Notes under the pieces: generated by a model
Seen by the model: the letters and a program-made list of their open reading frames with translations, nothing else
Database searches by the model: none
What the model was told of the DNA's origin: nothing
Source of the DNA: an uncultured Leptospirales bacterium
Lineage (GTDB): Bacteria; Spirochaetota; UBA4802; UBA5550
Direction of reading: 5' to 3'
Assembly: GCA_964514165.1 (NCBI GenBank)
Contig: CAZEPS010000001.1
Coordinates: 1,800 to 65,799, forward strand
Length of the DNA stretch: 64,000 nucleotides
Part shown: piece after piece, positions 7,066-63,980 of the stretch
Layout: each line of letters opens with the position of its first letter
Position numbering within the stretch: position 1 is the first letter of the stretch
Made by a program: the position numbers and the translations under genes

Positions 7066-7096
7066 AAAAAAAGGGGGAAATAATCCCCCCTTTTTT
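7066..7096. terminator. Bidirectional rho-independent terminator
   Basis: AAAAAAAGGGGGaaataatCCCCCCTTTTTT. This is a GC stem of 5-6 bp and a 7-nt loop, flanked by an A-run on one side and a T-run on the other. It lies just downstream of the stop of the 7119..7916 minus-strand gene. Confidence 0.75.
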
Positions 7097-30653: not shown

Positions 30654-30684
30654 GATACCCCTCCACTCTGTTGTTTCTTTAGGG

Positions 30685-30809
30685 AACCTCTATTTATTAA
30701 ATATGAGGTTACCGTTTGGGTACGCAATATGGTTTAAATGTTACAGAGCCTTGATTAATCAAGGCCCTATAACTTTGTTAGATGTACCCTTTAATTGCAC
30801 AATTAATTC
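30685..30809. repeat. Copy of the composite intergenic repeat between rfbB and rfbD, overlapping the rfbD stop
   Basis: It contains an AACCTC-14 nt-GAGGTT hairpin, TTTGGGTACGCAATATGG, an 18-bp perfect palindrome GCCTTGATTAATCAAGGC that includes the rfbD stop codon, and TTAGATGTACCCTTTAATTGCACAATTAA. The last block encodes the final 11 aa of RfbD. Confidence 0.65.
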
Positions 30810-31646: not shown

Positions 31647-32191
31647 TGAAACACCTCAGCATTCGCCAGAAACGGGAGCTTCCCGTCTTTTTCTGAGACC
31701 AGTGGATTTTCAATCTCCCAGTCCACGTTGATATCGGGATCATCCCACCTGATTCCCCGTTCCAGGTCCGGAGCGTATTCGTCTGTGCACTTGTAGAGTA
31801 AATGCACGTCGTCAGTGAGGGTCAGAAACCCATGGGCGAATCCCGGAGGGACATACATCATCAGGCTGTTCTCTGCAGTCAGCCTTTCACTGACCCACTG
31901 AAGAAAGGTGGGAGAGTTTTTCCTGATATCCACCGCCACGTCGAGCACGGCACCTTTTATCACGCGTACCAGTTTCCCCTGGGCCATTGGAGGCAGCTGA
32001 TAGTGGAGTCCCCTGAGAACGTTTTTTTGAGAGTAGGAGTGATTGTCCTGGACAAAGGCGGCATCGATGCCGTTCTTCGCGAAATCGCTCTTCTTGTATG
32101 ATTCGAGAAAGAACCCTCTCCCGTCAGGGAACACACGGGGTTCGATAAGAATCACGTCCTCTAACGCAAAGCTCCTGAAGGTAAAGGGCAT
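31643..32191 (-). CDS. rfbC: dTDP-4-dehydrorhamnose 3,5-epimerase
   Basis: 182 aa cupin. RGLHYQ...KLVRVIKGAVLDVAVD matches RmlC. Confidence 0.9.
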   Translation of the reverse strand: MPFTFRSFALEDVILIEPRVFPDGRGFFLESYKKSDFAKNGIDAAFVQDNHSYSQKNVLRGLHYQLPPMAQGKLVRVIKGAVLDVAVDIRKNSPTFLQWVSERLTAENSLMMYVPPGFAHGFLTLTDDVHLLYKCTDEYAPDLERGIRWDDPDINVDWEIENPLVSEKDGKLPFLANAEVFQ

Positions 32192-32192
32192 G

Positions 32193-33071
32193 TTATCCCT
32201 CCATCTCCATTACTTTCAACAGGTACTCGCCATAGCCGGACTTGAGCAGGGGGTCGGCAAGGTCCCGCAGTTCATCAGCGTTAATGTATCCCATCTTATA
32301 GGCTATCTCTTCAATACACGAGATCTTCAAGCCCTGCCGGTCCTCGATTGCCTTGACAAAACTAGAGGCTTCATGCATGGAAGCGTGGGTCCCGGTGTCG
32401 AGCCAGGCGAACCCCCTTCCCATGAGTTTGACCCGAAGCCGGTTTTTCTCCATGTAGGTCGTGTTGATGTCGGTAATCTCAATCTCCCCCCGGGGCGACG
32501 GTTTCAAGGATTTCGCTATTTGAACCACGTCGTTGTCGTAAAAATACAGACCGACCACGGCATAGTTTGATTTCGGCTTTTCCGGCTTCTCTTCAATGGA
32601 TGTTACACTGCCGTTTTTATCGAACGCCACGACACCGTACCGCTCAGGGTCTTTCACGAAGTAGCCGAACACAGTTGCCCCTTCCTTCTGTGAAGCAGCT
32701 TCCCGGAGCAGTTCCGGAAGCCCGTGGCCGTAAAACAGGTTGTCACCGAGTATCATGCACACTGAATCATTTCCGATGAATTCATCGCCGATTATAAAGG
32801 CGTCCGCCAGACCCCTCGGGTATTCCTGTACCCGGTATGTCAGGCTGATACCGAATTTGTTTCCGTTACCAAGAAGATTTTCGATACGCGGGGTGTCCTC
32901 AGGTGTAGAGATAATGAGAATATCCCTGATCCCCGCCAGCATAAGTGTCGAAAGGGGATAATAGATTGTTGGTTTATCGTACACCGGAAGCAGCTGTTTG
33001 CATACAACCTGCGTCAGGGGATAGAGCCTTGTGCCGGACCCGCCGGCGAGAATTATTCCTTTCATGTGCAC
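32193..33071 (-). CDS. rfbA: Glucose-1-phosphate thymidylyltransferase
   Basis: [18 protein letters not shown] at the N-terminus. The exact start codon is uncertain: the first codon of the track ORF or the ATG two codons in. Confidence 0.9.
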
Positions 33072-33123
33072 TCCTTCGCAACAGTATTAGTTATTAAAGT
33101 TTTTCTACAACTCAATTACATTT

Positions 33124-34413
33124 TTAAATAGATACGGCATTGCTGTTTTTATTTTTGTTATTTAAAACCAAAGGAGCATAAAGTACAAAAAGAAAAAACA
33201 AATCCTCAATCCAAAAAAAAGTAAAAAAAAGCATATCTTCAAAGAAACTGTAAACTAAAAATGATAAAACAATTCCTGCAAGTATTCTATAATGCTTATT
33301 CTTAAAACCTAAGACCATAATATATGTTATAACTGAAATAAATACGATTGATGCAATTATACCATAACGGCCCCATGTTTCCAGGATTACATTATGTAAA
33401 GAAGTTAACTTCAGTACCAGGATATTTGTTTTTGCAGCGTAACCCTTTCCAAATAAAAATTTTATTATATCAAAATTATTAAACTGATCCTTCAAAAAGA
33501 TTATCCAGATATCAATTCTTTTCGAGCTACCGGTCTTGAGTGTTTTTTCAATTATTATATCCAGTAATCCAGTACGGATAATACCAGCTATAAAAATCAG
33601 GAATATAGCTGATAATAGGATGAAAAACCATTTCTTATTGAAAATTTCTTTTATATCGTTAAATAATATGAATAAAACAACAATTGAAAAAATAAAACTT
33701 GAAAGAATACAATTACGGCAACGGGACACCAGAATAAAAATAATAAAAATACAGGAATGAAGAAAAAACAAAATCGATATCATGTACCCTTTTTTAATTT
33801 TATAATACATGAATAAAGATGTAGAAGACAAAAAACCAATTAATAACGAATATCCAAATCTATTAGGATTTATAGGAATTCCAAAATTATTTTTATTATT
33901 TATCAGTACAATAAACTCATTAACGGATTTAGAAGCAGCCAAACTGTTTATATCAGGAATAATAATTAATAATATGTTTAAAATTGAAATTATAAATACC
34001 GTGTATAAGATAATGATTAAAAACTTTTTATCTTTATGTATAATCCAAAAAGAAGAAATACATAAATAAGAAAACCCAATTATTAATGGCTCTACAATAT
34101 TAACATATAACTGTTCCCCGCTCAATATTCCAGAAAAAATCATCAAGGTAATAAATACAAAGATCAGTTTTTCATCAATTCTAAATGTTAAACCATTCCC
34201 ATAAATTCTATGAACAAAGAATGATATCAATATTGCAAATATTGCAAGTTTAAAACCTTTATACAAAACATTGTTATTAATAATTGCAGGTAACGTGAAA
34301 AGATAGGAAATAAATAACAACGAAATCAGTAATGAAATAACAATTATATCATTATAGAATAGATTGAAGAGTTTATCTAAATAATTATACTTAATTTTTT
34401 TAATCATTGTCAT
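33124..34413 (-). CDS. Polytopic membrane protein, probable O-antigen polymerase/ligase (Wzy/O-antigen ligase-like)
   Basis: 429 aa with about 10-12 TM helices and a larger periplasmic loop, in a very AT-rich and evidently foreign-composition segment. No conserved motif, so the call rests on topology and locus context. Confidence 0.5.
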   Translation of the reverse strand: MTMIKKIKYNYLDKLFNLFYNDIIVISLLISLLFISYLFTLPAIINNNVLYKGFKLAIFAILISFFVHRIYGNGLTFRIDEKLIFVFITLMIFSGILSGEQLYVNIVEPLIIGFSYLCISSFWIIHKDKKFLIIILYTVFIISILNILLIIIPDINSLAASKSVNEFIVLINNKNNFGIPINPNRFGYSLLIGFLSSTSLFMYYKIKKGYMISILFFLHSCIFIIFILVSRCRNCILSSFIFSIVVLFILFNDIKEIFNKKWFFILLSAIFLIFIAGIIRTGLLDIIIEKTLKTGSSKRIDIWIIFLKDQFNNFDIIKFLFGKGYAAKTNILVLKLTSLHNVILETWGRYGIIASIVFISVITYIMVLGFKNKHYRILAGIVLSFLVYSFFEDMLFFTFFWIEDLFFLFVLYAPLVLNNKNKNSNAVSI

Positions 34414-34576
34414 AAACTTAATAATGCACTTATTTTGGTATCTACTCAGCTATTGCTGAATAGATGTACATTTTTATAAAAATTGGCTATATAACTCTTT
34501 TTCATGTAATGTGCACATAATTGCACATAGCTGAGTAATTACTTATTCTGTATATATCTAAATGTATCAGGATTAT

Positions 34577-35458
34577 TTACCTGTGAAGACCCTCGAACTT
34601 TCCAAATTTTCCCTTTTTGAAATCAATATAGCCCTGTATAATAGAACTGATTTTTTTTAATTTATCTTTTTCAAACAGAACAATCTTACTGAATTCATAG
34701 AAGAAAGCCTCAATTTGCTCTTTTTTATATTGCGGAAACTCATTTTGATATAATTTCGATACATGACATGCATTTCTCGTTATATAATATCTTCTTCTGG
34801 GTGAATGGTTAGTTGTTACCTGAGGTCTACAAAATAGATTGTGATGTGTGATATTACCGAGATTGTGATCCATAATCACTGCATTTACCCTGAGTACATG
34901 ATATCTATTACTATGTAGACGCAAACAATATTCATCATCAACTTTATCAATAAAAAGCTGATTACAATATCCTCCAACCTTTGAGTAAATATCCAGGTTT
35001 ACCAGATTACCGGACGTCAAGACGCAAAGCTGTTCTTCAACTTCCTTTTCTGGCACCTGTGTGTATGAGTTATCACTGGGGAATGGGGCCATTACTCCGA
35101 CATTATTTAGATTATAACTATATTTTTCTGTATAATAAACTAGATTATTAACCGTATTTTTCCTTAACCTGCTATCCTGATCCATAGTCAACATATAATT
35201 ATATCCCCTGTCAATGGCCAGTTGAGCTCCTGTATTCAAAGCAGCGGCGATACCAATATTCTCATTATTTCTATGTACGATTACTCTTTCATGTTCCGCT
35301 ATTGATAGTAACGATTCTGGAACAGGACCCTCAGTATTATCAATAACAATAAGCAGATCTATCTGATCAATATACGTATTAACAATATCAGGAAAATCAT
35401 CAGCAGGCTGAAAAGTTACCACTACACCACAGATTTTTTGTTTAGATACATTCATCAT
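34577..35458 (-). CDS. Glycosyltransferase family 2
   Basis: ICGVVVTFQPADDFPDIVNTYIDQIDLLIVIDN, with DxD downstream. GT-A fold. Confidence 0.75.
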   Translation of the reverse strand: MMNVSKQKICGVVVTFQPADDFPDIVNTYIDQIDLLIVIDNTEGPVPESLLSIAEHERVIVHRNNENIGIAAALNTGAQLAIDRGYNYMLTMDQDSRLRKNTVNNLVYYTEKYSYNLNNVGVMAPFPSDNSYTQVPEKEVEEQLCVLTSGNLVNLDIYSKVGGYCNQLFIDKVDDEYCLRLHSNRYHVLRVNAVIMDHNLGNITHHNLFCRPQVTTNHSPRRRYYITRNACHVSKLYQNEFPQYKKEQIEAFFYEFSKIVLFEKDKLKKISSIIQGYIDFKKGKFGKFEGLHR

Positions 35459-35643
35459 AGTACCAGTACATTTTTTTGTGCAAATTTTTACAAATGGTTC
35501 CTCTATATGATAGCGTCAAGAAAGATTTACAATGCATATTATAATTGACAATTACTGGTATCATGCGGGAAGGAAAAAATACTTGCATTTCATATGTTTA
35601 GGAAAATCCTATCCATTTAAATAAGAGAAACGGCAATTTTTCC

Positions 35644-37269
35644 ATGCTTTTTAATTCATTACAATTCATGCTTTTTTTCCCGGCAGTAGTAATTATTTAC
35701 TATCTGCTCCCGTACCGATGGCGGTATCTCCACCTGCTGTTCGCCAGCTATTTCTTTTACATGAGCTGGGAACCAGGCTATGCGATATTAATTTTTATTA
35801 CAACAGTTATTGTGTATACCACCGGCATCGCCATGCATGGAAAATCAAAAGCTGTCAAACGGCGACTGGTGGCCCTGAGTATCGTATCCAATCTCGGAAT
35901 CCTCTTTACTTTCAAGTATTTTAATTTTTTCAGCAGTAATTTTAACAACCTTTTCTCGTTTATGGACCTTAACCTGACATTTCCCTATCTCAAATTTCTC
36001 CTCCCAGTGGGGATTTCATTTTACACCCTTCAGGCACTGAGTTATACAATCGATTTATATCGCGGTGACAGGGAACCGGAACGCCATTTCGGTATATTCG
36101 CCCTGTATGTCAGTTTTTTTCCCCAGCTTGTGGCCGGTCCCATCGAGCGGTCAACTAGGCTGATGCCCCAGTTTCATGAGAAATTTGATTTTGACTATAA
36201 CAGGGTCGTAGACGGACTTAAAATAATGGCCTGGGGTTTCTTTAAGAAACTGGTTGTAGCCGACCGTTTGGCGCAATATGTCGATATCGTTTATAATAAT
36301 CCTCAGGCCCATGAAGGCGGTGTGCTGGTCATAGCCACCTATTTCTTCATATTTCAGGTCTATTGCGACTTTTCAGCCTATTCTGACATAGCTATCGGAG
36401 CAGCCCAGGTCATGGGTTACCGGCTCATGGACAATTTCAAACGGCCCTATCACTCGAAAAGTATAGCTGAACTGTGGCAGCGGTGGCATATCTCTCTGAC
36501 ATCATGGTTTAGAGATTACGTGTATATACCCCTCGGGGGAAACAGGGTATCCGAGTTACGGTGGAACATCAATATATTGATTGTATTCGTGCTCAGCGGC
36601 CTGTGGCATGGAGCTGAATGGACCTTTGTTGTGTGGGCCTCCCTGAACGGTATCTTTACCATTATCGGATTCTACACGGCCAAAAATCGAAAGGCATTAA
36701 AAGACCGGCTCTTCAATATTCTCATTACCGGAAACACGGTACTGGTAGCCGGGGTTGGTCTTGCTGCTGTATTATTTGGCGTCGTTACGAATGAAATCGG
36801 CCTCAGCGCGGATGTCGGTATTAATATAAAGAAGATATTCTTCCTGCTCATCGGATCCTTCATTATTTTTTCAACTATCGGAAAGTTTGTAAACAGAGAT
36901 TTCATCTCAGCTTCTATCGAAAATGTTAAAAAACTTATCAGTATCCTCATCACCTTCCATCTTTTTACCATAGCCGGTGTATTCTTCAGGGCTAAATCGA
37001 TACAGGACGGCTGGTATATAATAACCCATTCTTTCAGCAGGAACTGGGACAACCTTAGACTCGCCTTCAGCAAGACGGATTTTTTCTACATGTTTCTCTC
37101 AATAATCATAATGGAAGGATTTCATGTTATCCAGAGCCATGGAAGCATCCGCCAGATGCTCAGAAACAAGCCCCTGATCATTCGCTGGATATTTTATTAC
37201 CTCCTCATCCAGTCGATCATTCTCTACGGTGTATTTGAGGAGAAACAGTTTATCTATTTTCAGTTTTGA
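35644..37269 (+). CDS. MBOAT-family membrane O-acyltransferase (AlgI/DltB/PatA-like)
   Basis: Polytopic, with the conserved MBOAT His region WQRWHISLTSWFRDYVYIPLGGN and a second WHGAEW. Confidence 0.8.
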   Translation: MLFNSLQFMLFFPAVVIIYYLLPYRWRYLHLLFASYFFYMSWEPGYAILIFITTVIVYTTGIAMHGKSKAVKRRLVALSIVSNLGILFTFKYFNFFSSNFNNLFSFMDLNLTFPYLKFLLPVGISFYTLQALSYTIDLYRGDREPERHFGIFALYVSFFPQLVAGPIERSTRLMPQFHEKFDFDYNRVVDGLKIMAWGFFKKLVVADRLAQYVDIVYNNPQAHEGGVLVIATYFFIFQVYCDFSAYSDIAIGAAQVMGYRLMDNFKRPYHSKSIAELWQRWHISLTSWFRDYVYIPLGGNRVSELRWNINILIVFVLSGLWHGAEWTFVVWASLNGIFTIIGFYTAKNRKALKDRLFNILITGNTVLVAGVGLAAVLFGVVTNEIGLSADVGINIKKIFFLLIGSFIIFSTIGKFVNRDFISASIENVKKLISILITFHLFTIAGVFFRAKSIQDGWYIITHSFSRNWDNLRLAFSKTDFFYMFLSIIIMEGFHVIQSHGSIRQMLRNKPLIIRWIFYYLLIQSIILYGVFEEKQFIYFQF

Positions 37270-37276
37270 GGGAACT

Positions 37277-38305
37277 ATGGGCTTACGAAGATTTATTGTA
37301 AATGCTACTATTCTCGTGATAATTTCACTGGGCCCCCTGGCCATGTATAATTTATATATGGATACGTTTGTTGTGTTCCGTAAAGATTATTCAGGCCATA
37401 AGAACGTTGCTAACCAGCATTACCTGAAGATAAAACACCTGCTCGACAACAAAACAAAGTATGACTCATACCTGTTCGGATCATCAAAAGTCGGCAGAAC
37501 CGAATGCTGCATGGTCCCATACGGAGAATGGTATAACATGTCCTATTCCAAAGGAGTCCCCCTTGATCATTTAAATGACCTGAAACTTATGCTCAGAAAA
37601 GGGGTACATGTTAAAAACGTACTCATCGGAATAGACATGCTCTCATACAAAATCAATCCCTATGAAAATTATACCCAGGCACTATGGAAACCCTACCCTG
37701 AAACACTCTATGAAAAATTAGAGTTTTTTATCAGTTACCTGTTGCTGAAACCGGTTGGCAAACTATTCGTTCAGAAAAAAACTGAAATGGTGTTTTTCGA
37801 TCGGTACCAAACCGGTGTCCTGTTCAATCCCGAAATTGATGCTAATATCGAAAAAAATCTTGAAAAACACATAAACGCTGACTATTTCAATGAAGGCTGG
37901 ACAACCGCAGGAGACAGGGTTAAGAAAACTCTTAATGAAATCAGGGAAATCCTGGAACTATCCGAACAACATGGTATTACATGCAAGATCTTCCTGAATC
38001 CTGAACATCCAAAAACATACATAGATAACGGGGTAGATCAGTTCTATAAGTTCAAAAAAGGTCTCGCAATGCTGACAGATTACTGGGATTTCAGCGGTAT
38101 TGACAGTATCTCAACCAGCAATTATTATTTTTATGAAACACTCCACTACCGTCCCATGGTGGGTACAATGATGATGGAGATCATGTTTGATCTTGAAAAG
38201 AAAACCGCACCTGCTGACTTCGGGTCTTATGTAACCAGTGAAACCATTGATGAGCACATAAACCGGCAGAATTCAGATCTCAGCACATACCTTTCATCAC
38301 AATAG
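37277..38305 (+). CDS. Periplasmic partner of the MBOAT acyltransferase (DltD/AlgJ/AlgX-like), putative
   Basis: N-terminal TM anchor and FGSSKVG, a possible SGNH/DltD-like Ser motif. Position immediately after the MBOAT gene, overlapping its stop. Low sequence certainty. Confidence 0.4.
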   Translation: MGLRRFIVNATILVIISLGPLAMYNLYMDTFVVFRKDYSGHKNVANQHYLKIKHLLDNKTKYDSYLFGSSKVGRTECCMVPYGEWYNMSYSKGVPLDHLNDLKLMLRKGVHVKNVLIGIDMLSYKINPYENYTQALWKPYPETLYEKLEFFISYLLLKPVGKLFVQKKTEMVFFDRYQTGVLFNPEIDANIEKNLEKHINADYFNEGWTTAGDRVKKTLNEIREILELSEQHGITCKIFLNPEHPKTYIDNGVDQFYKFKKGLAMLTDYWDFSGIDSISTSNYYFYETLHYRPMVGTMMMEIMFDLEKKTAPADFGSYVTSETIDEHINRQNSDLSTYLSSQ

Positions 38306-38311
38306 AATTAC

Positions 38312-39772
38312 ATGAAAAACAAACAGCGACTTTTCATCAATTCCATCTTCATGACCTCTGCCACTCTGTTCGAAAAATTAATTTTTTTCATAGCAACAAT
38401 GATAATAGCACGGTATCTCAGTGCGGAACAATACGGTGAATATGCAACAGCCCTTGGAATAGCAACTTTTTTCGGACTCATTTCAAATCTCGGTATAGCC
38501 GGCACTGCGATTCGTGCAATAAACCTGAAACCGGAATTCGAGGACCAGTACTATTCAAGCATCCTCGTCCTGAAGACTTTCCTGTCACTGGTCATTTATG
38601 GAGGCCTCCTCGGCTATCTTGCTCTCGCTTCATTCATGCAGTTCTATAACACTGATCCGGTCAGGAATAAAAGCGTCATTATTCTCACCGTAATATTCGG
38701 GCTCGTCAGGCTGTCCACAGAATTTATCCAGACAACCTACTCCCTGTTTGAAGCAAAGGAAAAATTCAAACTTATATCCGGAGCGTTGGCCCTTTTTTCA
38801 ATATTGTATATAACAGGCACACTCATAGTGGTTCTCTACAGGGGCGATTACTTTGATATAGTTTCCGTAAGACTCGGTATTAATGTCATATTCATGCTCG
38901 GAATCCTTTATACACTGACTAAATTTTATACGTTCAACTTCAAGCTAAAGAACCTGAAAATATTTCTAATCGAGTCCATACCTTTCTCACTGACATTTAT
39001 TTTCGCCAATGTCATCATCAACACCAGTATATTTCTTTTACCGGTTATACATGAAACAGTGTATGCGGGATATTACCAGAATGCCTTTCTCTTCTATATA
39101 TCAATTTCTTTTATACCCATCAGCATGGCCAAGGTACTCCTCCCGTTCCTGTTTAAGTTCAAATTTGACGTTAATCCAGATAAGTTTCAATTCGCCTTCA
39201 AAATTTATTCCAAGTTTTTCAGTATCGTATCGTTTTTTTTCGTTATCATCTTCTTTATCTTTTCCCATGAACTAATCACCTACATTTTCGGCGATAAATA
39301 CAGTGAATCCATACCCGTACTGCAGGTCTTCGCCCTGGCTGTCCCCTTTTCCTCAAACCCGGCGCCGTGGATAATAACGACCCTTGACAAGCAGGAATAT
39401 AATTCCCTGATTAACGGGATTGCAGCAGTGATAAACATAATAGCCAATATATTACTTATCTGGTATTTCAAGGCTGAAGGAGCGGCAGCAGCAATGGTTA
39501 TAACCTTTGCCGTGATTTACCTCCTGTCCCACATCTATCTGGTCAAGAATGGATATGTCAGGTATACCCCTGTTTTTCTTATGCGCCTGAAGCTTTTAAT
39601 CACAGTTGTCTGTATCTACCTGGCCAACAGTTTTATTTTTCAAGATATGTTTTTCATCATCCCCCTGGCCGTTTCCGTACTGGTTTACCTTGCCGTTGTC
39701 TATGTATTCATAATGGAAAAGGATGATTTCAGAATTATACGGGAAACCCTTCCCCTGAACAGGGGTGAATGA
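38312..39772 (+). CDS. wzx: Polysaccharide biosynthesis protein / oligosaccharide flippase (Wzx, MOP superfamily)
   Basis: 486 aa with about 12-14 TM helices and the typical PST-family length and topology. Confidence 0.7.
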   Translation: MKNKQRLFINSIFMTSATLFEKLIFFIATMIIARYLSAEQYGEYATALGIATFFGLISNLGIAGTAIRAINLKPEFEDQYYSSILVLKTFLSLVIYGGLLGYLALASFMQFYNTDPVRNKSVIILTVIFGLVRLSTEFIQTTYSLFEAKEKFKLISGALALFSILYITGTLIVVLYRGDYFDIVSVRLGINVIFMLGILYTLTKFYTFNFKLKNLKIFLIESIPFSLTFIFANVIINTSIFLLPVIHETVYAGYYQNAFLFYISISFIPISMAKVLLPFLFKFKFDVNPDKFQFAFKIYSKFFSIVSFFFVIIFFIFSHELITYIFGDKYSESIPVLQVFALAVPFSSNPAPWIITTLDKQEYNSLINGIAAVINIIANILLIWYFKAEGAAAAMVITFAVIYLLSHIYLVKNGYVRYTPVFLMRLKLLITVVCIYLANSFIFQDMFFIIPLAVSVLVYLAVVYVFIMEKDDFRIIRETLPLNRGE

Positions 39773-39773
39773 C

Positions 39774-40460
39774 ATGGTTTACGGTGTTATATTGTCCGGT
39801 GGATCCGGCAGGAGAATGAACGCCCCCATGCCGAAACAGTTTCTCGACCTTGGTCACATGCCGGTTATCGGATGGTCGATAAAAGCATTCCGGGATCATC
39901 CTCTTATTGACGGCCTGGTTATCGTGAACCATCCGGAATACCGGGACACCCTGCAGCAGGTAATCGATAAACTGCATGTTTCCAATTACTGTGTTATCGT
40001 TGACGGCGGCCACACGAGACAGGACTCATCGTACAACGCAGTCACATCAAGGCAATTCCGTGAAGACGATATTCTTCTCATTCATGATGCCGCGCGTCCC
40101 TTCATCACTGACGAACTCATAACACGATGTATAGAAAAGACCAGGGCCAACGGTGCGGCAGGTGTATATGTATCTGCAATAGATACTATCGCACAGATAA
40201 ATAATGGGTTTGTCGAATCCATACCGGACAGGAACATACTTTACCATACTCAAACACCGCAGGGATTCGTGTATGCACCCTTACTGAAAGCCCACAGGAA
40301 CGCGAAGAAGAATAACCTGACCGGTATTTCCGATGATATCTCCCTCCTGTTGAATGACGGTCAGCGGGTCGCTACAATAGCCGGCGATTACCGGAATATT
40401 AAGATAACGAATGTACAAGACCTTGCCTATGCCAGATTTCTGATTACTCACCAGCAGTAA
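39774..40460 (+). CDS. IspD/TarI-family cytidylyltransferase (2-C-methyl-D-erythritol-4-P or ribitol-5-P cytidylyltransferase)
   Basis: VILSGGSGRRMNAPMPKQFLDLGHMPVIGWSIKAF N-terminus. By context (last gene of the polysaccharide locus) a CDP-alditol/CDP-sugar role is as likely as isoprenoid IspD. Confidence 0.7.
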   Translation: MVYGVILSGGSGRRMNAPMPKQFLDLGHMPVIGWSIKAFRDHPLIDGLVIVNHPEYRDTLQQVIDKLHVSNYCVIVDGGHTRQDSSYNAVTSRQFREDDILLIHDAARPFITDELITRCIEKTRANGAAGVYVSAIDTIAQINNGFVESIPDRNILYHTQTPQGFVYAPLLKAHRNAKKNNLTGISDDISLLLNDGQRVATIAGDYRNIKITNVQDLAYARFLITHQQ

Positions 40461-41877: not shown

Positions 41878-41975
41878 AAAAAGATAAAACCGTTTTCAAC
41901 CAAATACGTACCTAAAAAGGATCCTCTCGTATAATTATTAGCGGTTCCCTGAAAATATTCCGTTAATGTAATTAA

Positions 41976-43121: not shown

Positions 43122-43557
43122 AATACCCGATCCTTTTTATGCATCGAAAACAGGTAATGTCTCAAAACCTGTATTTACTATTAAGCCTGAAATTTCACAA
43201 CTGGGTTTTAGTCAATTATACCCACGGACATAAATATAAGATGATGCGCATACAGAATCACCACATATCAAATACCTGTAATACATGTTTCAACCAGTTT
43301 TTAAGAATTATGAAAAATTTTACCTATATACTCGCGAAAATATTTAGGGAACATCTATTATTAAACAAGAGACACCCTTTACTTATCTGTTTCAATATTT
43401 TTCTTTCTCTGTTTTATCATATACATCTACTACTCTACAAATAGTATGGAAAAATTTAATGATAAAGAGTCGTATTGTATTAATAGTTCCAGCCGCTGTT
43501 TAGATTTACTTGTTCTTGACAAAACCGATTATGCAGCATTGAATACATCCTGAAATC

Positions 43558-44100
43558 ATGATAGAAAGAAAATTCATTGATGATTTATACACCAGTTACA
43601 GCAGGGAACTGGCAATTTATATTTACAGTTTCGTTAAATCCAGCGAAACGGCTGAAGATATTCTCCATGACCTTTTCGTAAAAATCATAAAATATTCCGA
43701 AAACCACTTTATTGACCCGGCCAGTGCCCGGGCGCTCCTGTACAAATCCGCCCGGAATCTCTGCATCCGTCACATACAAAAAAACAAGAAGATAACAACG
43801 AGCCAGCTTGAAGAGAACCTGAAATATGACTGCAGTGAATCCGTCGAAAAGAGTATTGAAGATCAGGAACTCATGGATCGTATTCACGACCTTGTCGATT
43901 CAAGGGACCCGAAAACCAGGTCCGTTTTCTACATGAGAACCGAACTGAACATGCAGTTCAAGGAAATCGCCGAAATAATGAAAATATCCGAGCGGACAGC
44001 CAAACGAAAAATGAGCCTTGTTCTGTCGTTTCTGTCTGAATCCCTTGAAAATGAAGGGTATTCAAAAAAAATTCTCATTTTTATGTCATTTTTACTATGA
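43558..44100 (+). CDS. ECF-subfamily RNA polymerase sigma-70 factor
   Basis: Region 2 (ILHDLFVKII) and the region 4 HTH (MQFKEIAEIMKISERTAKRKMS). Confidence 0.8.
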   Translation: MIERKFIDDLYTSYSRELAIYIYSFVKSSETAEDILHDLFVKIIKYSENHFIDPASARALLYKSARNLCIRHIQKNKKITTSQLEENLKYDCSESVEKSIEDQELMDRIHDLVDSRDPKTRSVFYMRTELNMQFKEIAEIMKISERTAKRKMSLVLSFLSESLENEGYSKKILIFMSFLL

Positions 44101-44134
44101 AACGTGCGTTGTATTAATAGAGCCTGTGGAAAGC

Positions 44135-45358
44135 ATGAAGAAACATTTGACCTATAATGAACTGGCTAACTTTATCGCTGAAGTATATGACGCAGTGAAA
44201 AATGCGGATATCAAGAATCACCTGCAGTCCTGCGATACATGTGCTCGAGCACATGAACGAATGCTCTCTTTTCAACGACCGTATTACCGTCAAAAGGTCC
44301 GTATCAGCGATAACGTACGAATAAGGATCCTCGAATCATACGATACGATAAGAAATCGTGAGGCTGAATCAGGGCCGTCCCTGTCTTTTTTAAGAAGAGT
44401 AATTACACCGCCGCGGATAGTTGCCGCTGGAATCGCCATGCTGGCCATCATTATCTCGGCACTTGTTATCAATACCTATTTCTTTGCTGATCCAGCGAAA
44501 CCGATGCTTTTTACCATCAGTGAGCATTACGGAAATGTAACTGTTAACGGAGCCCCTATTGGAACCGGTGATAGAATTGGTCCAGAAACGTCCATAGAAA
44601 CCTCCGCGGCTTCTTATGTTATACTTTCATTCGAAAAAACAATTACCGTCAAAATTCTCAGCAACAGCAGGTTACAAATAGACAAGAGTATGCTATCCGG
44701 TAAAGCAAAGGATGTTGAGTTAAAGTTTTACCTGGCCAGGGGGAGCCTGATATCGAATATTACCCATGAATCAACAGATTACCTCTACCGTACTCCCTTG
44801 GCTGTCATCGATTCCCGGGGAACCAGGTTCCTCGTCCACGCCTCCGGTGAGAAAACGACTGTTTACATGGAAGAGGGATCCGTGACAATCAAATCATCCC
44901 TGTCCGAAGCAGAAACCATCACGAGTGGAAAGAACAAGTACACGGTTTCCGAAACCATAACCTCCAAGCCCCTGACCGATTCAGAAAAGGTTGTGTACCA
45001 GGCGCTCCGCCGCATGAATAATAAAGAAATGAAAATCGAAGCCATGGACAGAGTCTTGAATTCATTCCAAAGGGATGAATCCCCTCCAATCGATGCCCTT
45101 ACCATACTTATACAAGATGCCAGGATCGGAAAAGAAAATATGGACACGTCAGAGAAAGAAGTAAAAAAGAAGGAAGCGGAAAGCATCCTTCCTGATACAT
45201 CAGACCAGGAGATAGAACCAGCCACTGAACAAGAAAAGGAAGTGGATTACAGCCCGTCCGAAGATGAAGCCGATGCCTCAAAGAAAAGGGAGATCCGCGA
45301 TAATATGAAGGAACTTCAGGAACTGAGGCGTTCACGGCGCGGGATACGGAGCAGGTAG
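44135..45358 (+). CDS. Anti-sigma factor with FecR-like periplasmic domain
   Basis: Start taken at MKKHLTYNEL. HLQSCDTCARAHERM is a zinc-binding anti-sigma N-domain-like motif. One TM helix, then a FecR-like beta region (GTRFLVHASGEKTTVYMEEGSVTIKS). Acidic/Lys-rich tail. Confidence 0.65.
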   Translation: MKKHLTYNELANFIAEVYDAVKNADIKNHLQSCDTCARAHERMLSFQRPYYRQKVRISDNVRIRILESYDTIRNREAESGPSLSFLRRVITPPRIVAAGIAMLAIIISALVINTYFFADPAKPMLFTISEHYGNVTVNGAPIGTGDRIGPETSIETSAASYVILSFEKTITVKILSNSRLQIDKSMLSGKAKDVELKFYLARGSLISNITHESTDYLYRTPLAVIDSRGTRFLVHASGEKTTVYMEEGSVTIKSSLSEAETITSGKNKYTVSETITSKPLTDSEKVVYQALRRMNNKEMKIEAMDRVLNSFQRDESPPIDALTILIQDARIGKENMDTSEKEVKKKEAESILPDTSDQEIEPATEQEKEVDYSPSEDEADASKKREIRDNMKELQELRRSRRGIRSR

Positions 45359-50030: not shown

Positions 50031-50101
50031 GATTATAACTGCTGATAGTATAAGAGTCTTGGTGATGTAACCTTTAAAACTGCAGACCTGTCTGCAAAAA
50101 A

Positions 50102-50959
50102 TCAAATCGTCACGACCATTCCTTCCCTGGCTCCAATAACCTCTAAATGTGGTTTTGAAGATTTTTTTACAGAACTGATCATCTTATCAATAAAGGAATC
50201 ATCATGGTAGGGATCATGGTGAAAGGTGTAGAGTTTTTTGACCTCGCTGTTCCTTGCAAGCCTGACGACCCCTTCAATGGTCGAATGACCCCATCCAGCC
50301 TTATTCGGATATTCCCTGTCAGTGTACTGGCACTCCGCCACCAGAATGTCAGCTCCCCGTATCAGGCCCTGTATGTTTTCAAGGTTGAATTCGGGTATTT
50401 CTTTATTAACTATTAATTCATTATCAGTGGCATATACGAAGACCTTGCCCCTGTATTCAAGCCTGAACCCGAGTGAAAGGGCGGGATGCATAAGATGGGT
50501 ATGATATATCTCTATGTCACCGATGGTCAGTGGATTATCGTACAGCTCGTGAAAAACCAGGTTCGATGACACCTCTTCAAGGATAACGGGAAAGTATTCC
50601 CGTTTCATCTGCCCGGCGAGAAGATCCTTGATGTCATGAAAATAATGCCCCCCGTAAACATGTATCTCCTTCTCTTTCATATACACATAACTGAAAAAGG
50701 GGAAACCCTGGATATGGTCCCAGTGGGTATGGGTGATAAGCAGGTGTACTGATGCCGGTTTATCTCCGAATTCATCAACAAGTGACCGCCCCAGATTTTT
50801 CAATCCTGTTCCCGCGTCAAAAATCAGAATCGTATCGCCGCATCTGACCTCAATGCACGGGGTATTTCCACCGTATTTCAGGAATTCCCTGCCAGGGGTC
50901 GGGATAGACCCCCGCACACCCCAGAACCGTATAAACAAATCTCCTCTTGTATCTTTCAT
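50102..50959 (-). CDS. MBL-fold metallo-hydrolase
   Basis: HLLITHTHWDHIQGFPFF contains the HxHxDH metal-binding motif. Confidence 0.75.
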   Translation of the reverse strand: MKDTRGDLFIRFWGVRGSIPTPGREFLKYGGNTPCIEVRCGDTILIFDAGTGLKNLGRSLVDEFGDKPASVHLLITHTHWDHIQGFPFFSYVYMKEKEIHVYGGHYFHDIKDLLAGQMKREYFPVILEEVSSNLVFHELYDNPLTIGDIEIYHTHLMHPALSLGFRLEYRGKVFVYATDNELIVNKEIPEFNLENIQGLIRGADILVAECQYTDREYPNKAGWGHSTIEGVVRLARNSEVKKLYTFHHDPYHDDSFIDKMISSVKKSSKPHLEVIGAREGMVVTI

Positions 50960-50980: not shown

Positions 50981-51137
50981 TAATGATAATTCTATCGAAT
51001 CGATAGAATTATCATTAGGGGACTTCTAAAACTATGTTTTTGAAGTCCCCTTGTGTGCACAAAGTTTGATAAAACCAGCATTTACAATTATAAGGATAAT
51101 TGTAAATGCTGGTTTTTAGATGTGCCCATTAAATGAG
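50981..51137. repeat. Composite intergenic repeat element (most complete copy)
   Basis: It contains a 37-bp perfect palindrome (50981-51017), a hairpin GGGGACTTCTAAAAC..GTTTTTGAAGTCCCC (51018-51050), TGTGCACA, an 18-bp perfect stem hairpin ACCAGCATTTACAATTAT-aagg-ATAATTGTAAATGCTGGT followed by TTTTT (51074-51118), and the block AGATGTGCCCATTAAAT. Confidence 0.7.
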
Positions 51138-51232: not shown

Positions 51233-51261
51233 TTGACAAATCAGATCAATAAATATATAAT
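51233..51261 (+). promoter_or_regulatory. Consensus sigma70-type promoter (TTGACA-17-TATAAT) upstream of cheD
   Basis: TTGACA at 51233-51238, an exact 17-nt spacer, and TATAAT at 51256-51261, about 50 nt upstream of the cheD ATG. Confidence 0.6.
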
Positions 51262-54341: not shown

Positions 54342-54527
54342 GTAATAATCCTCGCCTGTAAATTATATGGGTACATCCGAACCGAATAATCACTACATAA
54401 CTGGCAAACCGGTTTTTCTGAAACTTTGTTCTGATTTTCTGTTACAGAAGTACCCTGTTAGTGTTTGTATAAGTGCTTAAACTATTTTAAGCCTGGTCAC
54501 AGCATGTCAAGCCAAATCCGGAGTTAT

Positions 54528-55532: not shown

Positions 55533-55563
55533 TTTATTTCTCTCCAGCTTTGGTAATATATTT

Positions 55564-55610
55564 GAGACTTCCGAAAACAATAAATTTTTGAAGTCCCCCC
55601 GTATTGCACC
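55564..55610. repeat. Copy of the GGGGGGACTTC-AAAA...TTTTCGGAAGTC hairpin repeat (minus orientation)
   Basis: The reverse complement reads GGTGCAATACGGGGGGACTTCAAAAATTTATTGTTTTCGGAAGTCTC. It is the same core as 51018-51050 and 63875-63910. Confidence 0.6.
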
Positions 55611-55724
55611 ATTCAGTATACTGTTTATTTTAAGTTTCTTCAATACTGACAAGTATTTTTTTGAGTATTCGCTTGACTTTCCGTGAGTTCTGTCTTTTTA
55701 ATGAAGTAACCATAACTAACAAAG

Positions 55725-57541: not shown

Positions 57542-57712
57542 TCAGTTAAAGCAGCCGAGCTGACATCCCTTGATTTTTATCCCGAGGCGGTTGATTTCTT
57601 CACCAACCTTTCTCGGTGACATATCCAGCTGGTCAGCTATTTCAAGGGCTGACTTGCACTGTATGGCGTTTTCCCTGGTCTTTTGTTTTATTAAATCAGT
57701 CAAATCTTCCAT
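57542..57712 (-). CDS. Small (56 aa) putative helix-turn-helix protein
   Basis: Start taken at MEDLTDLIKQ with GAGG 5 nt upstream. ...SALEIADQLDMSPRKVGEEINRLGIKIKGCQLGCFN is HTH-like with a C-terminal CxxGCF. It is 6 nt upstream of the M50 gene. Confidence 0.4.
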   Translation of the reverse strand: MEDLTDLIKQKTRENAIQCKSALEIADQLDMSPRKVGEEINRLGIKIKGCQLGCFN

Positions 57713-57757
57713 GAAACCTCGTTTTACATTTGCGTGATATGCAATGAATTTTAAGGT

Positions 57758-57870
57758 AACCTCTATCAAGCAAATACGAGGTTCCCCTTTGGGTACGTAA
57801 TATGAACCAGCACAATTTTCATGAAAACGGTGCTGGTCAAATTGCCATCTGCACCCTTAATTATTGACAA
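57758..57870. repeat. Copy of the composite intergenic repeat (AACCTC..GAGGTT / TTTGGGTACGTAATATG / CCAGCAC..GTGCTGG / GCACCCTTAATT blocks)
   Basis: Block-by-block similarity to 30685-30809 and to the 3' half of 63875-63980. Confidence 0.65.
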
Positions 57871-63157: not shown

Positions 63158-63236
63158 TTCATCATCAACCAGAATACTGTATACTGCAAGGGGCGGCTTT
63201 CTGGAGTCGTCCCTTTTTAGTTTTATTCTCAGTCGC

Positions 63237-63874: not shown

Positions 63875-63980
63875 GGGGGGACTTCTAAAAACTCATTTTT
63901 AGTCCTTTTTTGTGCATCCAGCACAATTTTTTGAAAAAAATGGTGCCGGGCTGATTATTTGATGTGCCCTTTAAATAAAA
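63875..63980. repeat. Copy of the composite intergenic repeat (GGGGGGACTTCTAAAAA hairpin / TGTGCATCCAGCACAATTTT / GATGTGCCCTTTAAAT blocks), possibly continuing past the window end
   Basis: Its 5' block matches 51018-51050. Its 3' blocks match 57806-57870 and 51118-51137. Confidence 0.65.

Follow-up and report, generated by a model that had tools for sequence, protein, structure and literature searches.

Hairpin-rich intergenic blocks in an uncultured Leptospirales bacterium are probably copies of a new family of short non-coding insertion elements

What are the hairpin-rich blocks that recur between the genes of an uncultured Leptospirales bacterium? The question is raised by the spacer upstream of the gene cheD, at positions 50981-51137 of the 64,000-nucleotide (nt) stretch that was analysed here as a whole and is called the window (GenBank assembly GCA_964514165.1, contig CAZEPS010000001.1, positions 1,800 to 65,799 of the forward strand). 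An earlier note on this DNA described five blocks, a to e, shared by this spacer and four others, and offered three explanations: a repeat family like the repetitive extragenic palindromes (REPs) or the MITEs (miniature inverted-repeat transposable elements), a family of structured RNAs, or the binding sites of a regulator. Our analysis supports the first of these and disfavours the other two. We put at about 0.72 the probability that the blocks are variously decayed copies of one short non-coding insertion-element family, of the MITE kind or of the kind of REPs and bacterial interspersed mosaic elements (BIMEs). This reading is based on the dispersed intergenic copies with inverted ends, their presence or absence at orthologous sites, the different loci occupied in two genomes, and the decay of the copies. 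The family is new, although elements of this kind are already well known, and as far as our scans of genomes, metagenomes and viruses reach, it appears to be confined to this lineage.

The block sequences given in the note were found at all five of its coordinates, and its minimum of five loci was borne out, with eight now recognised within the window (about one locus per 8 kb). Sites 1 to 5 (30682..30789, 51018..51127, 55560..55611, 57755..57856 and 63875..63969, all on the plus strand) are those already named, site 2 being the cheD spacer; site 6 (41902..41954, minus strand), site 7 (54369..54455, strand unassigned) and site 8 (43343..43377, plus strand) are additional. Block a, GGGGACTTCWAAAA, has four arms at three sites (51018+, 51037-, 55585- and 63877+) against 0.26 expected, a count reached by 0 of 100 shuffles. 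Block b is repeated at 30678-30731 and 57751-57804, with 81% identity between the two copies over 54 nt (blastn E 1e-11). For block c, CCAGCACAATTTT occurs at 57807 and 63918, in sites 4 and 5, and the hairpin at 51071-51116 in site 2 shares its skeleton with both. Block d recurs without change at 51119 and 63961 and, in site 1, with a single mismatch at 30781. Block e, in turn, is too short to be significant by itself. When all the intergenic DNA was compared with itself by blastn, five matches of at least 28 bits were obtained, whereas 100 dinucleotide shuffles gave 0.33 on average and 2 at most. The blocks are colinear across the sites.

Most of this similarity can be reduced to one motif. 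Blocks a, b and d, with the exception of the c hairpin and with block e fitting only loosely, are made of a 9-nt motif, M = GGGNACNTC, and its inverse. The 5' arms of a (GGGGACTTC) and b (GGGAACCTC) fit M exactly; so do, in reverse complement, their 3' arms and GATGTRCCC, the first half of block d. The tail of block b, GGGTACGYA, departs from M at one or two positions. The whole window has 20 copies of M where 8.7 would be expected (none of 100 shuffles reaches 20), and this excess is intergenic. Intergenic DNA amounts to 4,239 nt, or 6.6% of the window, with a GC content of 34% against 47% overall; it holds 11 copies where 0.13 were expected (maximum 2 in 2000 composition-matched shuffles; binomial 1e-8). 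A twelfth copy is in the element-encoded tail of rmlD. In coding DNA M is not enriched, with nine copies, including the one in the rmlD tail, against about eight expected. When a covariance model was built from the b copies alone, its best match outside the training set was hairpin a at 51014-51054 (27 bits, E 2e-4); hairpins a and b are homologous. Among the sub-threshold matches of a profile of block d were the inverted left ends of five elements. No window copies beyond those reported here were returned by nhmmer profiles of the M hairpin, c and d or by a covariance model, R1, that had the site 8 copy as one of its training sequences.

Could these be ordinary intrinsic terminators and A/T-rich low-complexity sequence that look alike by chance? 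Hairpin c of site 2, with its runs of A and T, does resemble a bidirectional terminator, and similar sequences can be found elsewhere. Palindromes of the form GGGGACTTC…GAAGTCCCC also occur in viral and Bacteroidota-like contigs that are unrelated, roughly as often as expected of generic hairpins. The looser a hairpin gave 10 heterogeneous hairpins in viral contigs against about six expected, and the full a palindrome gave a single lone hairpin in the metagenomes of the Joint Genome Institute, on a Bacteroidota-like contig (Ga0209628_10192419, our L006, 877-911), where a perfect GGGGACTTCTAAAAA…TTTTTAGAAGTCCCC ends an open reading frame (ORF) like DUF4494; both results were judged coincidental, the latter as a coincidence among terminator hairpins rather than a family member. 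Likewise, the b core CCNTTTGGGTACGYAATATG had one match, about the chance rate, in 185,579 species genomes, the source species not being among them. It is in a metagenome-assembled genome (MAG) of the Caldilineaceae (our L003, 227-259), just after a TATAAT and upstream of a GT2 glycosyltransferase gene, and one match to the 20-nt b-tail pattern is about the number expected by chance in 596 Gb. Within the window, however, the shuffle controls reject chance for a, b and M, so that the blocks are not merely as similar as shuffled intergenic sequence, and their order is conserved. Three sites are between divergent genes, where no terminator is needed, and T-runs are seen only at site 5 and in hairpin c of site 2, so the elements do not belong to the intrinsic terminators as a class. 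We regard a chance resemblance as exceedingly improbable.

The M boxes also define the anatomy of the elements, which are 52–111 nt long and contain no ORF. A full element begins with a hairpin of an M box, an A/T-rich loop and an inverted M; then come an M-like box or TGTGCA, hairpin c and a terminal inverted M, which is the first half of block d, so that hairpin c is bracketed by the last two boxes. The terminal inverted repeats, 5'-GGGNACNTC … GANGTNCCC-3', end sites 1, 2, 5 and 7 and have diverged at site 4. Hairpins a and b are 32-33 nt long with their two inverted M boxes spaced by 14-15 nt, and c is 32-46 nt long. At sites 1, 2 and 4 the boxes alternate in orientation (> < > … <), while the second palindrome, c, is of a different sequence class. 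The feet of the hairpins are GGGN…NCCC in a and b and ACCAGC…GCTGGT in c, with neither GTAG nor CGTC adjacent. Short forms consist of the first hairpin alone or of two M ends enclosing other sequence. The second half of block d, WTTAAAT, is flanking DNA outside the element, since at recX it aligns with the uninterrupted sequence of a relative and at rmlD the corresponding bases are ancestral codons. All of the palindromes are intergenic except for the overlap with the rmlD tail, and block d, described as intergenic, is so at its other positions but is inside the tail of the rmlD ORF at site 1.

Sites 1 and 4 are full b-type elements. Site 1, inserted in the 3' end of rmlD and upstream of rmlB, has the hairpin GGGAACCTC-N14-GAGGTTACC (30682-30713), the M-like tail TTTGGGTACGCAATATG (30715-30731), the palindrome GCCTTGATTAATCAAGGC (30748-30765), which holds the new stop codon of rmlD, and the inverted M of block d, GATGTACCC (30781-30789). 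Site 4 is between a 399-aa gene and a 56-aa gene, both on the minus strand, and has the hairpin GGTAACCTC-N14-GAGGTTCCC (57755-86), the tail TTTGGGTACGTAATATG (57788-804), hairpin c (57806-37) and the diverged end TCTGCACCC (57848-56). The helix-turn-helix label previously given to the small gene at 57542-57712 had no Pfam support. Sites 2 and 5 are full a-type elements. Site 2, between the gene for an MBL-fold protein (-) and cheD (+), has hairpin a (51018-51050), TGTGTGCACA (51052-61), hairpin c with perfect 21-bp arms (51071-51116) and the inverted M, GATGTGCCC (51119-27). Site 5 begins 2 nt past the recX stop codon with a hairpin a whose decayed 3' arm is followed by T6 and is terminator-like (63875-63911); next are block e, hairpin c (63918-49) and the inverted M, GATGTGCCC (63961-69).

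The evidence that these units move comes from a comparison with the nearest relative, GCA_054919795.1 (68% identity in RecX, 69% in a fragment of the MBL-fold protein and 72% in RmlD). Three of its contigs, here L023, L020 and L017, are syntenic with the window at about 21-35.5 kb, 40.9-54.0 kb and 54.0-63.9 kb, and for each orthologous spacer we determined which single stretch, when deleted from the window, best restored the alignment to the relative. The note had suggested that absence from orthologous loci would be the signature of a mobile element, and this is what was found at six sites: at sites 1, 2, 3, 4, 5 and 7 the element is absent from the relative and the flanking intergenic DNA can still be aligned. 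The cleanest case is site 5, where deletion of 63875-63969 (95 nt), exactly from GGGGGGACTTC to GATGTGCCC, raised the score against L017 from -29 to 43, and the rejoined flank, TTTTTAAATAAAAC…, is equal in length to the TTTTTATAAAAAC… of the relative. In the smpB spacer (site 7; 95 nt in L017, 186 nt in the window) deletion of 54364/5-54455/6 (92 nt) raised the score from 22 to 100. At site 3 (149 nt in L017, 201 nt in the window) deletion of 55560-55611 (52 nt) raised it from 94 to 145, and the neighbouring promoter region of the rubrerythrin gene is well conserved in the relative. The spacer of site 4 is 87 nt in L017 and 194 nt in the window, and a deletion of about 100-109 nt changed the score from -11 to about 58-67. 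For site 2 (198 nt in L020, 351 nt in the window) a deletion of 147-154 nt raised it from 44 to 164; the L020 region is without hairpin a, TGTGTGCACA, hairpin c and the inverted M. At site 1, rmlD and rmlB overlap by 4 nt (GTGA) in L023 and are separated by a 105-nt spacer in the window, and deletion of 30682-30789 (108 nt) raised the score from -27 to 56-60. The orthologous regions of sites 6 and 8 are too poorly alignable for a call of presence or absence.

The relative also has a copy of its own. At L017:6356-6387 there is a b-type hairpin, GGAAACATC TATTTATTGAATCA GATGTTTCC (N14 loop), followed by a b-like tail; it is 74% identical to the b block of site 1 over 43 nt (E 2e-4), with compensatory stem changes, and no recognisable copy is present at the matching locus of the window. 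This is one copy in 48 kb of the relative versus seven in 64 kb of the window. A second genome, GCA_050298055.1, whose MBL-fold protein is 66% identical, is not syntenic and had no family member in 20.8 kb.

The same comparison bears on the idea that the M pairs are operators for a DNA-binding protein, such as a global regulator or a nucleoid protein, upstream of a set of genes. M is short and well defined, its inverted pairs have a fixed spacing of 14-15 nt in a and b, it is confined to intergenic DNA, and several copies are 25-220 nt upstream of start codons. However, the sites are missing from the orthologous promoter regions of the relative, where nearby promoter sequence has been kept (the -35 and -10 of cheD and the region upstream of the rubrerythrin gene). 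The flanking genes (rmlB, recX, smpB, cheD, the lipoprotein gene and ribF) have no common function, and the promoter-proximal placement described previously is not consistent, as five sites follow the 3' end of a gene and three are between divergent genes. Moreover, the free N positions of M are complementary within each hairpin, which a dimer-binding site does not need, and the spacings of the second pair range from 57 to 69 nt. A set of operators is thus very unlikely.

Several known DNA signals were compared with the blocks as well. By eye, the -24/-12 spacing is wrong for a sigma-54 promoter, block d has no consistent -35 partner as a sigma-32 -10 element and an orientation inconsistent with the flanking genes as a sigma-70 -10 box, and the consensus of the IHF and CodY boxes is absent. 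The core sites are not the RYYYAAC/GTTRRRY of integron attC sites, nor is there a cassette array; the segment of about 60 nt is too short for an invertible promoter and has no promoter inside; and an uptake-signal sequence was rejected because M is not enriched in coding DNA.

Small RNAs, or cis-acting elements of untranslated regions (UTRs), whose hairpins are selected at the RNA level, are the remaining alternative. The predicted RNA folds are strong at site 2 (z -9.9/-10.9), site 1 (-4.1/-6.2) and site 4 (-3.0/-4.0), and at these three sites hairpin c is enclosed by a predicted long-range helix in which block d pairs with the M-like box or block e. In addition, site 5 resembles a terminator of recX, and the stems show paired changes, which we consider suggestive only. 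Among a, b and the copy of the relative, paired differences are found at position 3 (G:C/A:T), position 4 (G:C/A:T/T:A) and position 7 (T:A/C:G/A:T), and hairpin c of site 2 differs from those of sites 4 and 5 by a symmetric 4-nt ATTT/AAAT insertion and a T:A to A:T swap. The earlier note had argued from point mutations for selection on structure. The examples it cited do not hold, as the C/T position of block b is outside the hairpin, the stem variants of block a at sites 3 and 5 break pairs, as does the b variant at site 6, and RNAalifold counted no compensatory substitution in either block; a weaker form of the claim is retained, namely that palindromes a, b and c and the copy of the relative show paired differences.

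An RNA role is opposed by several results. No Rfam family, whether riboswitch or other, matched at the gathering score, and at E up to 5 only miRNA precursor models were returned, on hairpin c and with about half the gathering score. A promoter-plus-terminator pair framing the elements was found on neither strand. A transcript would carry the reverse complement of sites 1 and 4 and the forward strand of site 5, an inconsistent orientation to the genes. The fold z is near background at sites 3, 5 and 6, stems are broken at sites 3, 5, 6 and 8, the elements are missing at the orthologous loci of the relative, and the covariation is not significant. We therefore hold structured RNAs to be distinctly unlikely. 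The copies span the range from perfect to decayed, as would be expected of selfish repeats in decay.

How such insertion elements might spread can be sketched. The elements have entered A/T-rich, TTAA-like intergenic sites and, at site 1, the final codons of rmlD. The elements would be copied by an enzyme acting in trans and encoded elsewhere in the genome, and, more speculatively, they may move by a single-strand, hairpin-recognising mechanism of the HUH/Y1 type. Three features suggest such a mechanism, although the numbers are small: the cleanest site has no duplication, the palindromes are maintained, and there is an orientation bias, six of the seven orientable copies (all but site 6) pointing the same way on a strand of negative GC skew.

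Certain observations weigh against the insertion-element reading. At 9 nt, seven of them fixed, the terminal repeat is short. Direct repeats of 4 nt, candidate target-site duplications, flank sites 1, 2 and 4 (TTTA, ATTA and TTAA) and are absent at sites 5 and 7; when excision from M to M was compared with excision of M to M plus 4 nt, the scores were 56/60 at site 1, 25/29 at site 2, 60/58 at site 4, 95/94 at site 7 and 43/31 at site 5. At sites 2, 4 and 7 the element ends are placed only to within about 10 nt. No transposase or REP-associated tyrosine transposase (RAYT) was found by Pfam scans among the ORFs of the 64-kb window, and we know of no autonomous parent element with the same ends. 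The double changes in the b-type alignment were matched in 60 of 500 shuffles, and the independent hairpin types are few. Finally, as the comparison is with a single distant relative (about 68-72% protein identity), insertion here and precise loss there are not formally separable.

Among known elements, MITEs such as Correia/CREE in Neisseria, RUP in Streptococcus pneumoniae and ERIC in enterobacteria have been reviewed in PMC3184786, where the modular boxA-boxB-boxC repeats of S. pneumoniae, the BOX elements, are also named. Like MITEs, the present elements are non-coding, shorter than 200 nt, mostly intergenic and composed of stem-loops with terminal inverted repeats, and they too can become joined to an ORF at its 3' end, providing a terminator or UTR structure (PMC3184786). 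Presence or absence between related genomes is also common to both. Our elements accordingly have the hallmarks of the class: they are short, below the limit of about 200-400 bp set for MITEs (PMC3184786), and without a transposase gene, have terminal inverted repeats, and are dispersed with insertion polymorphism. They differ in that the terminal repeat is just 9 nt, the interior is modular and variable instead of being one conserved core, candidate target-site duplications flank only sites 1, 2 and 4, and no matching parent insertion sequence is known.

REP, BIME and REPIN (REP doublet) elements are mobilised by RAYT (Y1/HUH) transposases (PMC2817692, PMC3733652, PMC3116915) and can exceed 100 copies per genome (PMC2817692). 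The resemblance to them is also considerable, since the present hairpins are extragenic imperfect palindromes within the 20-40 nt of REPs (32-33 nt) with a common end motif. They occur in several types with paired stem differences, mainly after genes, with no obvious duplication at the cleanest site and with an orientation bias, and their M boxes may form BIME-like mosaic units of alternating orientation. Nevertheless, the REP superfamilies are defined by a GTAG or CGTC tetranucleotide at the palindrome end (PMC3733652), and we do not class the elements as REPs because they have neither tag. Their conserved end is GGGNAC, their stems are A/T-rich past the first 9 bp, and no RAYT gene is within the window. 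That the elements constitute a third superfamily of REP-like hairpin repeats, tagged by GGGNAC and moved as single-stranded DNA by a HUH/Y1-type enzyme, with the M palindrome and the c hairpin together as the REPIN-like mobile form, is a bolder proposal that we think unlikely.

BOX elements have in common with ours the short modules in varying numbers, the intergenic location and the stable hairpins; their modules are direct tandem units, whereas here they are nested inverted pairs, and to our knowledge there is no sequence similarity. The IS200/IS605-derived palindrome-associated elements (PATEs) are similar in having hairpins near both ends, a short A/T-rich target, no duplication, as at our cleanest site, and a strand or orientation bias. 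They are dissimilar in having no terminal inverted repeats and in that the hairpins at their two ends are alike, while here the a/b and c hairpins differ.

The insertions seem to have affected the host genes, for example at site 1. The GTGA overlap of rmlD and rmlB in the relative (L023 5100-5145) is replaced in the window by a separation of the two genes by the element (30759-30797). The element lies 11 codons ahead of the former rmlD stop, the codons of the ancestral C-terminus persist as spacer together with the Shine-Dalgarno sequence, and the C-terminus of RmlD has changed from EQNTGGKQ* in the relative to the element-encoded GTSNKVIGP*. The insertion would thereby have abolished the translational coupling of rmlD and rmlB and given RmlD a new tail, an example of an element remodelling an operon junction and rewriting the C-terminus of a protein. 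At site 5 the element provides the only terminator-like hairpin after recX, and its stem and T-tract may act there as an incidental effect. Other copies, which occupy promoter or UTR regions at chemotaxis, lipoprotein and smpB-adjacent genes, would likewise place incidental stem-loops in neighbouring 5' or 3' UTRs. For annotators, the family explains hairpin-rich intergenic blocks that could otherwise be mistaken for small RNAs or regulatory motifs, and GGGNACNTC pairs together with the covariance model are a means of masking or counting the copies. A new kind of biology would be implicated only if the mobilising enzyme proved unusual.

The remaining sites are less complete. Site 3, between a lipoprotein gene (-) and the rubrerythrin gene (+), is a short form with a degenerate a hairpin, TGAGACTTC…GAAGTCCCC (55563-55598), and a d/e-like end, GTATTGCACCA (55601-11). 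It had been described as 55564-55610 in the opposite orientation; the minus orientation does fit, but the site is palindromic and the plus orientation fits equally well. Site 6, between the convergent ribF (+) and a 381-aa gene (-), is a degenerate b copy with a broken hairpin and the tail TTTAGGTACGTATTTGG, and matches sites 1 and 4 with E of 2e-5 to 9e-5. Site 7, between smpB (-) and a 98-aa gene (-), is bounded by GGGTACATC … GAAGTACCC and has an unrelated interior. Site 8 is a degenerate b hairpin, TTTAGGGAACATCTATTATTAAACAAGAGACACCC (E 0.007 and 0.003), in a 436-nt divergent region upstream of a gene for an extracytoplasmic function (ECF) sigma factor, with a decayed c-like stretch at 43164-43211. 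An A/T-rich ORF there, 43139-43444 (101 aa), had no Pfam match and is probably spurious, which would make 43122-43557 one 436-nt divergent spacer next to the ECF sigma gene (43558-44100) and a FecR-like gene (44018-45358). A solitary d-like end, GATGTAACCTTTAAAA (50064..50079, plus strand), between convergent genes, is a weak candidate for membership; the counterpart spacer in the relative is only 7 nt.

Abutting hairpin a of site 2 is another palindrome, P1 (50980..51018, strand unassigned), which is perfect over 39 nt with 19-bp arms (CTAATGATAATTCTATCGA A TCGATAGAATTATCATTAG). It occurs once in the window and is also missing from the relative. Its membership of the family is uncertain, and it may have been inserted separately or may serve as an operator. 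At the same locus, a Logan contig from the same strain (SRR7048223_86720, our L002, 1-40) breaks inside the c hairpin with 21-bp arms, as de Bruijn assemblies are expected to do at long perfect palindromes. The strain is present in the read sets SRR7048223 and SRR7048224. Upstream of cheD there is a consensus sigma-70 promoter, TTGACA-17-TATAAT (51233-51261), with a counterpart on the minus strand of the relative (L020, about 2790-2820) in which the -35 box and the spacing are conserved. The MBL-fold protein on the other side of the site (50102-50959) has its named relatives among Spirochaetota MAG proteins. In GCA_054919795.1 this gene is called as 86 + 192 aa (L020 2933-3826), and that of ribosomal protein L13 as 94 + 50 aa (L017 8241-8681); these splits are frameshifts, in-frame stops or assembly errors.

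By Pfam scans, the window contains housekeeping and polysaccharide-synthesis genes. They include a ccm operon, an rmlACDB operon, glycosyltransferases, ispD, ribF, the ECF sigma/FecR pair, guaA, purE, cheD with an HDOD gene, smpB, rubrerythrin, an M50 peptidase, rplM-rpsI and recX; no tRNAs were found in the 64 kb. The GC skew of the plus strand is negative in seven of the eight bins. In the polysaccharide locus at 32001-40000 (MBOAT, flippase-like and GT2 genes) the GC content falls to 0.39 against a window mean of 0.47, and this segment may have been acquired horizontally. The window also has two textbook intrinsic terminators that do not belong to the repeat family, at 7067-7096 and 63188-63215; one is the bidirectional AAAAAAGGGGG…CCCCCCTTTTTT and another is downstream of rpsI. 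The sequence ATTAATCA occurs six times, always in intergenic DNA (10659, 30752-30761, 51159, 62196 and 62209), a total not above that of the shuffles, and two of the six copies form a near-tandem pair upstream of rplM.

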